Part shown: positions 2,006 to 51,376 of the stretch, piece by piece
Numbering within the stretch: the stretch's first letter is position 1
How the letters are laid out: each line of letters opens with the position of its first letter
Translations under genes and position numbers: made by a program
Virus record (IMG/VR): IMGVR_UViG_3300036939_000084
Location: 33,261 to 97,260 of that record
Length of the DNA stretch: 64,000 bases
Strand: one strand, 5' to 3'
Origin: a virus
The notes under the pieces: model-generated
Databases searched by the model: none
The model's input: the letters and a program-made list of their open reading frames with translations, nothing else
Told to the model about the DNA's origin: nothing

Positions 2006-3457
2006 ATGGCTTTAATTTCCTTAACCTCATCAGTAGCTTCTGCTAGTTCTGTTTATCAAAACAATGCGACTTACTCTCCTAACAAAGCAATAGATGGCAA
2101 TTCTTCAACTTATTACAATTCAAATGCTGCGACCACGTCAGAGCATTGGACTCTAGACTTAAACGGAATTGCGACAATTAATTTTATTAGTATTATCGGA
2201 CTCGCTAATTTTGGGAATCGCCTCAACAATATTCAAGTCATTGCTAGTGCTAATGCAGATTTCTCTTCGTCGGTAGTGGTTGGAACAACTCCATCAACTG
2301 TTTCTACTCAATCTGTTGTTATAACTCCGCCTAATCCTATTTCTAATATTCGATATATTAGGCTTCAAAAAACAGTAATTCAGAATGCAATAAATGATCT
2401 TTTAACTATTGCGGAAGTGCGAATCGATGGTGTTTTTTCTGACGCCACAACTTATACACTGACTGCTCCCGCAATATCTGTGGGATCGGTTGGTGTGGTA
2501 TCAGGTAATTTTACTGTAGCATTGCCAACTAATACAACTCTTCCTACTCCTGTAACAATTACGCCGAGTGATAATGGCGCTGGAGGAACTTTCAGTCCTA
2601 CGACAGTTCAATTATCTAAAAGTATCCTCTCTGCTACTTTTACTTATACTCCTACCACGCCAGGAGCAAAATTAATCTCAACCGTTAATAACGGAAACTT
2701 AATTAATCCATCTACTGTTCGCTATACAGCGATGGTTTTAATTCCTTTGGTTTCAGCAATAGCTTCTGCTAGCTCTGTTTATCAAAACAATGCGACTTAC
2801 TCTCCTAACAAAGCAATAGACGGCAATTCTTCAACTTATTACAATTCAAATGCTGCGACCACGTCAGAGCATTGGACTCTAGACTTAGATAGAATTGCGA
2901 CAATTAATTGTATTGGTATTATCGGACTCGCTAATTTTGGGAATCGCCTCAACAATATTCAAGTCATTGCTAGTGCTAATGCAGATTTCTCTTCGTCGGT
3001 AGTGGTTGGAACAACTCCATCAACTGTTTCTACTCAATCTGTTGTTATAACTCCGCCTAATCCTATTTCTAATATTCGATATATTAGGCTTCAAAAAACA
3101 GTAATTCAGAATGCAATAAATGATCTTTTAACTATTGCGGAAGTGCGAATCGATGGTGTTTTTTCTGACGCCACAACTTATACACTGACTGCTCCCGCAA
3201 TATCTGTGGGATCGGTTGGTGTGGTATCAGGTAATTTTACTGTAGCATTGCCAACTAATACAACTCTTCCTACTCCTGTAACAATTACGCCGAGTGATAA
3301 TGGCGCTGGAGGAACTTTCAGTCCTACGACAGTTCAATTATCTAAAAGTATCCTCTCTGCTACTTTTACTTATACTCCTACCACGTCAGGAGCAAAATTA
3401 ATCTCAACCGTTAATAACGGAAACTTGATTAATCCATCTACTGTTAATTACATAGCA
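2006..3457 (+). repeat. 726-bp near-identical tandem direct repeat (units ~2006-2731 and ~2732-3457)
   Basis: Matching landmarks offset by 726 nt (tgctag 2041/2767; aaactt 2695/3421). Confidence 0.95.
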
Positions 3458-33182: not shown

Positions 33183-33431
33183 ATGATAATCAAAGTAGAA
33201 ATAAATGGAAAACCGATAGATGTCGAAATTATTACTGACATTCGAGTAACAGTTTTAGATGCAGATTTCGAGGCAGAGGGGTATAATTCCCTCGAAATCA
33301 CCTACAAGATAAATCACGAGGGGGTGAGTATTGATTTAGTAGACGGAGAAACGGGAGAAGTTGTTGGAGACAGTGCCAGTTCCCACTGGGACTATGTTGC
33401 AGAACATACCCCAGTTGACGATTTGGTTTAA
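33183..33431 (+). CDS. Acidic early-cassette protein
   Basis: Promoter 33145, hairpin 33433; 19 D/E versus 4 K/R in 82 aa. Confidence 0.7.
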   Translation: MIIKVEINGKPIDVEIITDIRVTVLDADFEAEGYNSLEITYKINHEGVSIDLVDGETGEVVGDSASSHWDYVAEHTPVDDLV

Positions 33432-49771: not shown

Positions 49772-49989
49772 TTTGGTGACTTATATTGATGGAAGGGCGA
49801 TCGCGAAACTCTGTTGTTACCAGAGGCGATCGCTTTTTTGTTACAACAATATTATAGCACTTTTTGTTATAAAATAAACACAAAAACAGAGAAGAGCGAA
49901 TGAAATTCTTCTTTTTCTAGATCTCCTCGACAACTTTCTCTATCATTTGGATAATAGAGAAAGTTTAGAACAAACAAAGGTTTCGGTTA

Positions 49990-50355
49990 ATGACTATATA
50001 TTTTGGCTTCGCGATCGCTGACAGCATGATTCCGGATGACGCCGACATTCAGAAGCGCAAACTAGAAATTGAGGAGGCTAAAGAATTGATTCAGACTGCT
50101 GTGCCATGCGTGAATGCCTCGCATACCGCAACGATTGAAGCTATGACTGAACGATTCGGGATTCAACTAGAAATTCCCGAAAAACCACCTATGGTTAATC
50201 TCCAGTATGGTGACGTGTTGGTAGTTATGGGCGTTAGAGGGCTACCTCGGCTCACAGATCGCCATCACTACACGGAAGAAGAGATAGCGGCTGCGTCTTT
50301 TAAGTTCAGCTCGTATGAAATATTTGAAGATTTAAGAGAGCTGTACGCAAACTAG
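49990..50355 (+). CDS. DUF1874/STIV-B116-like protein (AcrIII-1 ring nuclease candidate)
   Basis: IYF..AI..SMI; IEEAKELI; SHTATI; VNL.YGDVLVV; LPRL..TEEEI follow the DUF1874 pattern from memory. Confidence 0.6.
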   Translation: MTIYFGFAIADSMIPDDADIQKRKLEIEEAKELIQTAVPCVNASHTATIEAMTERFGIQLEIPEKPPMVNLQYGDVLVVMGVRGLPRLTDRHHYTEEEIAAASFKFSSYEIFEDLRELYAN

Positions 50356-50364
50356 TTTAAATAA

Positions 50365-50430
50365 GCCGAAACACCGAAACAATCGGTGTCTGCCAGGTAG
50401 TCGTTTACTGGCACTGACGAGGAAGACGAA
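50365..50430 (+). ncRNA. Type II hammerhead ribozyme (predicted cleavage after GUC, C50390)
   Basis: GAAA 50368-71; 7-bp stem III; GUC; 6-bp stem I; CUGACGA 50414-20; 2-bp stem II; loop I UCGUUU can pair with 3' AGACGA (pseudoknot). Confidence 0.85.
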
Positions 50431-50432
50431 TA

Positions 50433-50654
50433 ATGTTCGATCAAGGCAAAGACTTGAAACTATTTTTGCTCACTCGTGACGGTAACTATTGGGTGGCCGA
50501 AGTTCAGCACAATGGCTGGGAGGTTATTGAAGAATTTGTTTGGTCTGCCAACAAAACCGAAAATATTCTCATTAACTGGCTAGAGCGTTTAATTGCAGAA
50601 GGCAAAATCACGGTAGCTGATGCTATCCGTGTAGGGGTTTACATTAACCGATAA
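50433..50654 (+). CDS. Hypothetical protein
   Basis: Starts immediately after the ribozyme. Confidence 0.65.
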   Translation: MFDQGKDLKLFLLTRDGNYWVAEVQHNGWEVIEEFVWSANKTENILINWLERLIAEGKITVADAIRVGVYINR

Positions 50655-51376
50655 TGCCTAAAGGTAGTAATCCCAATAGCCACCACAATAAGCCCACCAT
50701 CTCAGGATTAAAAGCATCGGAAATATCTCTCCTGCATGAGCAATGGGCTTTTCTAGAAATTATCGGACGCAAAAATAAATCAAGAGGAGGACGTGAAGTG
50801 GTCAGAGCGATGCAAGTCATTGCCAAGCGCAATTGGCAAAAATCTGCTGAAATTTTCAAATGTGAGCCAACACCAGAAGCATTGAAGTCCAAGCTGATTG
50901 AGATGTTCCCCAGCATTCAAAAGGGGCGCAAAACAGCAGATGATTTAATTCAAGAAATAGCTTTAGGCGAATGCAGCCTTGATTGGAAACCTGAGACTGG
51001 TTTTATCAGAGTTGTTAATTTAGCTAGTATTGCTATTGTTGATGGCGATCGCAAGCTCGTCGAGGCCTATCAGGAACTAGCGAGTGGAGAAATATTCCCC
51101 CGCAACATCGAAGGCGTAGCAGAGAAAATCCAGTATCCTGAATCTCCCCAAGAGGGAGCACTGCGAGGATTAGAAGAGGAATTGGGAATTGTACCTGCAT
51201 CTTTAGAGTTTATTGGTGAGACCTTTGATAAGAATCAACGGTCAAAATACCAGGGTATTGAGTCCTTTGCGCGAAAGTATCAATTTCGCGCAACACTCAA
51301 ACCGGAAGATATCAAAGATGAGTACGTAGAAGACAGGGATGGTGATAAGACAGTGTTTAGATGGGTTCTTGTTTAA
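50654..51376 (+). CDS. Nudix hydrolase with N-terminal RHH-like extension
   Basis: Nudix-like box EKIQYPESPQEGALRGLEEELGI; KT.DDL.QEI..GEC. Confidence 0.7.
   Translation: MPKGSNPNSHHNKPTISGLKASEISLLHEQWAFLEIIGRKNKSRGGREVVRAMQVIAKRNWQKSAEIFKCEPTPEALKSKLIEMFPSIQKGRKTADDLIQEIALGECSLDWKPETGFIRVVNLASIAIVDGDRKLVEAYQELASGEIFPRNIEGVAEKIQYPESPQEGALRGLEEELGIVPASLEFIGETFDKNQRSKYQGIESFARKYQFRATLKPEDIKDEYVEDRDGDKTVFRWVLV

Follow-up and report, generated by a model that had tools for sequence, protein, structure and literature searches.

The 64,000-nt stretch of viral DNA analyzed here (referred to as the window) comprises positions 33,261 to 97,260 of the IMG/VR record IMGVR_UViG_3300036939_000084 and carries a type II hammerhead ribozyme motif on its plus strand. 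The motif occupies the 77-nt spacer between a gene for a DUF1874-like protein and an open reading frame (ORF) of 73 aa, termed ORF73, and lies on the same strand as both. The upstream stop codon (50353-50355) is located 9 nt 5′ of the motif, the next ATG (50433) follows 43 nt past the predicted cut, and no ORF of at least 40 aa on either strand overlaps the motif. The individual parts of the ribozyme are outlined below.

50364-50431, plus strand: complete type II hammerhead ribozyme motif of 68 nt, full-length match to RF02276
50366-50367, plus strand: 5′ strand of stem II, C50366 and C50367 (C11.2 and C11.1), pairing with G50422 and G50421
50368-50370, plus strand: core nucleotides G12-A13-A14, from sequence reading and the Rfam alignment, invariant in 38 of 38 family members
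50368-50371, plus strand: GAAA, i.e. G12-A13-A14 plus A15.1
50371-50377 with 50383-50389, plus strand: stem III hairpin, 7 bp (ACACCGA/UCGGUGU, A15.1 to U16.1), loop AACAA
50390, plus strand: C17 of the GUC triplet, predicted scissile bond 50390/50391, from the position in the hammerhead consensus
50391-50396 with 50408-50413, plus strand: stem I hairpin, 6 bp (UGCCAG/CUGGCA) with an 11-nt loop, from sequence reading and the minimum free energy fold
50401-50406, plus strand: 5′ strand of the pseudoknot, UCGUUU in loop I, in the family pseudoknot register
50414-50420, plus strand: core nucleotides C3-U4-G5-A6-C7-G8-A9 (CUGACGA), from sequence reading and the Rfam alignment
50419-50422, plus strand: Shine-Dalgarno-like GAGG (G8-A9-G10.1-G10.2), 10 nt before the ATG at 50433, putative ribosome-binding site
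50421-50422, plus strand: 3′ strand of stem II, G10.1 and G10.2, from sequence reading
50424-50429, plus strand: 3′ strand of the pseudoknot, AGACGA in the 3′ tail, in the family pseudoknot register

All nucleotides required for a hammerhead core are present, namely C3-U4-G5-A6-N7-G8-A9, G12-A13-A14, the A15.1-U16.1 pair (A50371-U50389) and an H17 (C50390), and the connectivity is that of type II, with loops closing stems I and III and stem II left open. Loop I (50401-50406) and the 3′ tail (50424-50429) form 6 bp including one G-U, where at least 4 bp were taken to define a loop-I/3′-tail pseudoknot. G50365 and A50423 are mismatched in the window copy at a position at which relatives form a third stem II pair. 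An earlier note, made from the letters of the sequence, had claimed a type II hammerhead with such a pseudoknot and had listed GAAA, stems I to III, the GUC triplet with C50390, CUGACGA, the two loop-I/tail strands and an ATG 43 nt after the cut; each of these parts was found where the note had placed it, the ATG being the one at 50433, and the assignment as a whole was borne out by the Rfam match, the family register and the covariation in relatives described below. Comparison with the Rfam hammerhead covariance model, which the note had proposed, returned RF02276 (Hammerhead_II) over its full length (model positions 1-66 of 66) with 47.6 bits, 10 bits above the gathering cut-off of 37, and an E-value of 1.2e-6 for the 64-kb window. 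This was the only above-threshold Rfam match in the window, the second-best match of any family reaching an E-value of 0.45 under permissive filters, and the 107-kb viral record contains no other hammerhead. In 14 control genomes no hammerhead match was obtained with the same covariance model. Our own covariance model R1 scored the window copy at 60.6 bits, a circular value, as this copy (L001:1501-1573) is row 1 of the training alignment A1; the scores of the relatives are the independent ones. The minimum free energy fold of the 68 nt consists of exactly stems III and I, and both stems remain in the fold of a 161-nt context. We therefore consider the stretch 50364-50431 as almost certainly a real hammerhead motif. 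It belongs to the pseudoknotted subclass of type II, with architecture, pseudoknot and habitat all as published in 2011.

Two side observations concern the fold and the model. In the 161-nt fold (z-score only -1.5) the 3′ core GACGAG (50416-50421) is paired with CUCGUG (approximately 50472-50477) inside ORF73, a pairing that may compete with the ribozyme fold after transcription has passed this point. In the RF02276 consensus the annotation of the two stem II pairs is apparently shifted by one column from the canonical 10.1-11.1 and 10.2-11.2, a G being placed opposite a G and the C 5′ of GAAA left without a partner; this offset may give rise to the non-standard pair and the inserted g that cmscan reports for otherwise regular copies.

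Homologous loci were compared with the window copy position by position. Three strain-level relatives (L182, L183 and L184) retain the hammerhead with 62.6 bits on model R1 and differ from the window ribozyme at two positions, the same two as in contigs of runs X2 and X3. One of the substitutions, 50423 A>C, lets this nucleotide pair with G50365, with which A50423 is mismatched, and so adds a third pair to stem II, while the other, 50406 U>C, abolishes the outermost pseudoknot pair alone, so that this sixth pair is not conserved. From the flanks, with 37 differences in 459 nt (about 8%), about 5.5 differences would be expected in the 68 nt, compared with the two found. L099, which is related more distantly, encodes DUF1874-like and Nudix proteins which are 83% and 85% identical to those of the window and contains two hammerheads (HHa and HHb), scoring 42.0 and 45.9 bits on RF02276. 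One is located directly after the DUF1874-like gene and the other between an unrelated 84-aa ORF and an unrelated 104-aa ORF. Compared with the window, the stem III pair A50377-U50383 is C-G in both copies of L099 and G50376-C50384 is U-G in one of them, the pseudoknot pair C50402-G50428 is U-A in HHa, and one G-C pair of stem I is changed to G-U. The third stem II pair at the position of 50365/50423 is G-C in L182 and in HHa and A-U in HHb. Homologous loci hence show pairing-preserving changes in three parts of the fold, namely stem III, the third stem II pair and the pseudoknot; the earlier note had named their absence as grounds for giving up its proposal. HHb (3172-3238, 45.9 bits) has G/G in place of the usual G-C at 10.1-11.1, the innermost pair of stem II, and may be slow or inactive, judging from this substitution.

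A decayed hammerhead (16.1 bits, E 0.14) lies downstream of the DUF1874-like gene in L100 (74% identity) at 2892-2974; this relic keeps the 5′ strand of stem II, GAAA, stem III, GUC and the start of stem I, and the CUGANGA box is lost. In L101, L102 and L104 to L106, where 11-26 nt follow the DUF1874-like gene, the model search returned no hammerhead, and L103 contains a terminator-like hairpin after the gene and no hammerhead. In three other contigs a gap of 69-72 nt follows the DUF1874-like gene, a length suggestive of a hammerhead. Searches for additional relatives gave little: the locus had no match among 50,697 phage records by megablast or blastn, searches of viral contigs with the Nudix protein or the DUF1874-like protein as the single query produced no loci, and a single-protein scan of metagenome contigs produced one distant locus, which is without a hammerhead.

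A much wider family of viral hammerheads was collected with a search pattern comprising stem I and the 3′ core, unveiling at least 97 viral-contig stretches that share the stem I UGCCAG/CUGGCA. The matches fall into two classes: the first has a 5-nt loop I, a stem II of 3-4 bp and no pseudoknot, and the second has a loop I of 9-12 nt, a stem II of 2-3 bp and one A followed by a tail complementary to loop I. The second, long-loop class includes the window copy, and 38 distinct viral members of it were aligned. In the true register 85.8% of the cells of this alignment were paired versus 31.7-38.7% when the 3′ partners were slid, and the covariation score amounted to 0.370 versus 0.119 in shuffles, none of the 500 shuffles reaching the true value. 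Stem III columns were paired to 98.7% with both sides changed at 4 of 6 pairs, and stem II carries compensatory changes as well; stem I is fixed by the search pattern and is consequently uninformative on covariation in this set. For the pseudoknot of the window copy the outcome depends on the register. When the register was left free, 27% of tail shuffles reached 6 bp with the window loop I, a consequence of a U-rich loop and a purine-rich tail, while the exact family register was reached by 2.8% of the shuffled tails and 0.3% of the shuffled loops. Within the family the pseudoknot shifts register between subclasses, and a fixed-column count accordingly gave only 59% paired; in a free-register test at least 5 bp were formed by 71% of the true loop/tail pairs versus 37% of the cross pairs. 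Upstream stop codons lie mostly within about 10 nt of the hammerhead across the family, for which the 9 nt of the window is typical. In the window the start codon that follows CUGANGA is 12 nt past its end, whereas the median for 81 hammerheads is 26 nt (interquartile range 20-35).

The genes and the putative promoter around the ribozyme are as follows.

49927-49955, plus strand: promoter-like site TCGACA-17-GATAAT with 10 of 12 consensus matches, candidate start of the ribozyme transcript
49990-50355, plus strand: upstream gene, 121 aa, DUF1874/STIV_B116-like (AcrIII-1-like candidate), PF08960, phrog_5063
50433-50654, plus strand: downstream ORF73, 73 aa, no family match, its stop overlapping the start of the Nudix gene
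50654-51376, plus strand: gene for a 240-aa protein with a C-terminal Nudix domain (PF00293, E 1.1e-6)

The upstream protein is DUF1874-like, and membership at the Pfam threshold was not reached for the window protein itself, which scored 22.3 bits (E 1.5e-4) on PF08960 with a cut-off of 26 and E 0.094 against the AFV3-109 structure (PDB 2j6b). Many of its 284 homologues carry a precomputed PF08960 match, mostly flagged weak. The label AcrIII-1-like, which the earlier note had given to this gene, thus holds as a resemblance to DUF1874 and lacks an above-threshold family match. As a side observation, the DUF1874-like protein is a member of a family of about 113 aa in which 24 columns are invariant among 48 sequences (loci L114-L181), a very tight conservation, and whose members at 50-63% identity are mostly found in bins of Patescibacteria or the Candidate Phyla Radiation (Saccharibacteria, Paceibacterota and others) and in a few cyanobacterial and other genomes; such a distribution and conservation is odd for a phage anti-CRISPR. 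The only homologue of ORF73 is an 85%-identical protein in the strain-level relatives, again with the hammerhead 5′ of it. Copies of the Nudix protein with 63-85% identity are encoded in L099, L101, L104 and L105, and together with the DUF1874-like gene the 240-aa Nudix gene forms a conserved pair across relatives (L099, L101, L104, L105 and L182). The slot between the two genes is hypervariable and filled with unrelated small ORFs of 73, 84 plus 104, 149 or 131 plus 74 aa, which are bracketed by hammerheads in some relatives.

The source record is a 107-kb IMG/VR record classed as provirus, and the runs listed for the stretch were four biocrust metagenome DNA runs, one of which may be its source, with no RNA run among them. 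Within the window major-head-like and endolysin-like proteins, a primase, a DNA polymerase exonuclease subunit, methyltransferases and a ParA-like protein are encoded. The element is accordingly regarded as a phage or prophage of what looks, from its sequence, like a cyanobacterial host. The HIP1 octamer GCGATCGC occurs 60 times in the window versus 0.57 expected copies, spread over structural and replication genes; abundance of HIP1 points to a cyanobacterial host, and its presence in the structural and replication genes of the phage is taken to indicate a long residence in such a host.

An inserted element was observed beside the hammerhead of some relatives. In L182 (1623-2910) and L183 the DUF1874-like gene is interrupted 12 nt short of its stop codon, equivalent to 50341/50342 of the window, by an IS605-family element whose right end and the hammerhead downstream of it are about 21 nt apart. 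The element codes for a 392-aa TnpB (OrfB_IS605 plus a Cas12f1-like TNB domain) and changes the C-terminus of the DUF1874-like protein, which then comprises 153 aa. Read-through RNA carrying the TnpB guide RNA would enter the ribozyme, which may be a coincidence. Contig breakpoints at 50340/50342 in run X2, considered as a recombination junction at the hammerhead, turned out to be this IS605-family tnpB insertion instead. The window itself encodes a 427-aa transposase (phrog_506, E 2e-96) at 647-1930 adjoining virion-like genes, which may belong to the same kind of insertion sequence as the one beside the relatives' hammerhead.

In order to relate the ribozyme to its neighbour genes, DUF1874-like loci were collected from the 48-homologue alignment, giving 6 viral and 68 genomic loci, to which the loci of encoding contigs and one metagenome locus were added. 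The model search of 83 further DUF1874-like loci yielded hammerheads in L099 alone and the relic in L100. In the opposite direction, the neighbours of 81 distinct viral hammerheads (72 upstream and 68 downstream ORFs) were scanned with Pfam, and among these related viral hammerheads DUF1874 was found in 0 of the 71 other upstream neighbours and Nudix in 0 of the 67 other downstream neighbours. The neighbours were mostly small proteins without families, and HU-like and Mu-like proteins, ArdA and ArdC also occurred. A general association of hammerheads with DUF1874 or with Nudix genes was rejected on these two scans, and the link between the hammerhead and the anti-defence candidate that the earlier note had implied does not hold as a general rule. 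The DUF1874-hammerhead association is confined to one narrow lineage. The spacer should therefore be annotated as a hammerhead ribozyme, which is not evidence on an anti-CRISPR function of the upstream gene.

With respect to a possible function, the position of the GAGG (50419-50422) deserves attention, since it is part of the core and of stem II and is at the same time the sole Shine-Dalgarno-like sequence before the ATG at 50433. The same overlap of GAGG and core is observed in HHa and HHb of L099 with spacings of 6 nt and 7 nt, respectively, and a few unrelated viral hammerheads share an overlap of core and Shine-Dalgarno sequence as well. On present comparison this overlap with the putative ribosome-binding site appears to be the only unusual feature of the window hammerhead. 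We propose that the cluster would be transcribed from upstream of 49990. Stems III and I would form co-transcriptionally, and the loop-I/3′-tail pseudoknot would dock stem I on the 2-bp stem II, whereupon the 2′-OH of C50390 would attack its own 3′ phosphate and cut the RNA between 50390 and 50391. The 5′ product would be the DUF1874-like mRNA, ending in the stem III hairpin and a 2′,3′-cyclic phosphate, and the 3′ product would start with a 5′-OH and the stem I hairpin, followed by ORF73, the Nudix gene and the following genes. Joined by merely the 2 bp of stem II, the two halves would part after the cut. As the GAGG is located in the core and stem II and is the only Shine-Dalgarno-like site, ribozyme folding and ribosome binding would be mutually exclusive, and cleavage would free the GAGG. 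Each half of the mRNA would thus have a fate of its own, and the start region of ORF73 would become accessible.

The steps of this proposal differ in their probability. That the hammerhead is real and self-cleaving in its native transcript is probable from its sequence, and catalytic activity of the window copy in vivo is judged just as probable. That cleavage has a selected role in the expression of the flanking genes is favoured with less assurance. Splitting of the transcript with altered stability or translation of the halves is a plausible role, by analogy the standard hypothesis for bacterial and phage hammerheads, whose mRNA-processing role is still unproven (PMC6765202). Unmasking of the ribosome-binding site by cleavage, as suggested by the position of the GAGG, is a tentative and rather doubtful idea. 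Even less likely is a lineage-specific, ribozyme-gated translation switch, in which the core would serve as Shine-Dalgarno sequence, the pseudoknot would abut the start codon (in the window, HHa and HHb), cleavage would license translation of the slot ORF and the device would travel with exchangeable cassettes; the slot would then be flanked by two conserved candidate counter-defence genes (DUF1874-like and Nudix).

Several points weigh against an active and useful ribozyme at this locus. Stem II of the window copy, with 2 bp plus the G/A mismatch, is the weakest in its lineage, and the pseudoknot of this copy, which includes a G-U pair, is significant only in the in-register test and is weak evidence alone. 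Conservation of the ribozyme relative to the flanks in the strain variants is suggestive and not significant alone. As L101, L104 and L105 keep the DUF1874-like and Nudix genes without a hammerhead, the ribozyme is dispensable for those genes. Promoter-like sites in the region are as frequent as in shuffles, and the one listed is a bare consensus match. Finally, cyanobacteria often start translation without a strong Shine-Dalgarno sequence, and the GAGG overlap may for this reason be incidental. An inactive or decaying relic, that is a recognisable motif without a useful cleavage rate that persists through recent acquisition, would agree with the unpaired G50365/A50423 beside a stem II of only 2 bp, with the loss of CUGANGA in L100, with the G/G at 10.1-11.1 in HHb and with the several relatives lacking the element altogether. 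However, every invariant core nucleotide is intact in a motif 10 bits above the Rfam cut-off, and both substitutions of the strain variants are structure-neutral or structure-improving. Furthermore, 2-bp stems II are common in active type II hammerheads, in which added pairs can lower the activity (PMC3088659). We consequently regard a relic as improbable.

A role at the DNA level appears still less probable, although the hypervariable slot speaks for it: the ribozyme sequence of about 50-70 bp could act as a portable junction for homologous recombination by which slot genes are swapped, RNA cleavage being secondary. Each relative has unrelated small ORFs between two conserved genes, of which the DUF1874-like one is 74-83% and the Nudix one 63-85% identical. 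The hammerheads of L099, which are very like that of the window, bracket the unrelated 84-aa ORF and precede the unrelated 104-aa ORF, so that the ribozyme is the only sequence conserved between non-homologous genes. The relic of L100 ends inside loop I, and hammerheads are known to flank single genes or short gene blocks in prophages (Perreault et al., PMC3088659). On the other hand, the pairing-preserving covariation in stems II and III and the pseudoknot reveals selection on the RNA fold beyond DNA identity, the breakpoint in run X2 is a transposon insertion and not a cassette exchange, and no recombinant pair was found that shares one flank and differs in the other exactly at the hammerhead. 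A junction of this kind would also be compatible with ribozyme function. Far more remote is a chance resemblance or another element, such as an intrinsic terminator on the minus strand built from the stem III hairpin. Among its minus-strand entries the terminator scan does list this hairpin with a T-rich run after it, but such sites are as frequent as expected from shuffles and no credible minus-strand gene ends here; chance is countered by the full-length Rfam match and by the same motif with compensatory changes in relatives. Together with the copies in L099 and in L182 to L184, the Rfam match effectively rules this reading out. A hammerhead that probably cleaves its own transcript hence accounts best for the motif, and it can be compared with known systems.

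Type II hammerheads with a loop-I/3′-tail pseudoknot were tested by mutation and cleave fast at 0.5 mM Mg2+ (Perreault et al. 2011, PMC3088659). With this type (RF02276) the window copy shares the core, the capped stems I and III, the open stem II of 2-3 bp and a pseudoknot of 5-6 bp between loop I and nucleotides just past stem II. The habitat is shared as well, namely spacers between co-directional small genes of phages or prophages, typically just after a stop codon. No structural difference was found; the 11-nt loop I, the UCGUU/GACGA pseudoknot and the G/A at the third stem II position are the window's own, and its distance to the next start is unusually short (12 versus a median of 26 nt after the core). 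Within the same study, hammerheads upstream of or around ardA in a prophage region of Agrobacterium tumefaciens and in Legionella were found to cleave in vitro and in E. coli (PMC3088659). In analogy to these, the window ribozyme adjoins a candidate anti-defence gene in a putative polycistronic phage transcript, and the occurrence of ArdA and ArdC among the neighbours of related viral hammerheads echoes the ardA association of Perreault et al. In contrast to the ardA hammerheads, the neighbour in the window is DUF1874-like, is located upstream and is confined to one narrow lineage, and activity is predicted from sequence. For three prophage-associated type II hammerheads of Desulfovibrio vulgaris cleavage in vivo was detected by cyPhyRNA-seq (PMC8782182). 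They belong to the same Rfam family as the window hammerhead and lie near phage-like and hypothetical genes, albeit in another host and in another sequence lineage, and they demonstrate that predicted motifs of this kind do cleave in cells.

Type II hammerheads are abundant in phages and their biological role has been undefined since 2011, which the window copy does not change. The locus nevertheless provides a compact test case, with a ribozyme 9 nt after one gene whose core overlaps the putative ribosome-binding site of the next. Moreover, what lies between the two conserved genes varies among relatives from two ribozymes through one and a relic to none, a natural series suited to asking whether cleavage alters the translation or stability of the flanking messages. 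Engineered hammerhead devices (aptazymes and RiboJ-type insulators) mask a ribosome-binding site or insulate 5′ untranslated regions. Like these devices, cleavage in the window would release a downstream start region, in this case the GAGG of core and stem II. The engineered devices are synthetic and usually carry the site in an extended stem I or III, whereas the overlap in the window is natural and lies in G8-A9-G10.1-G10.2.

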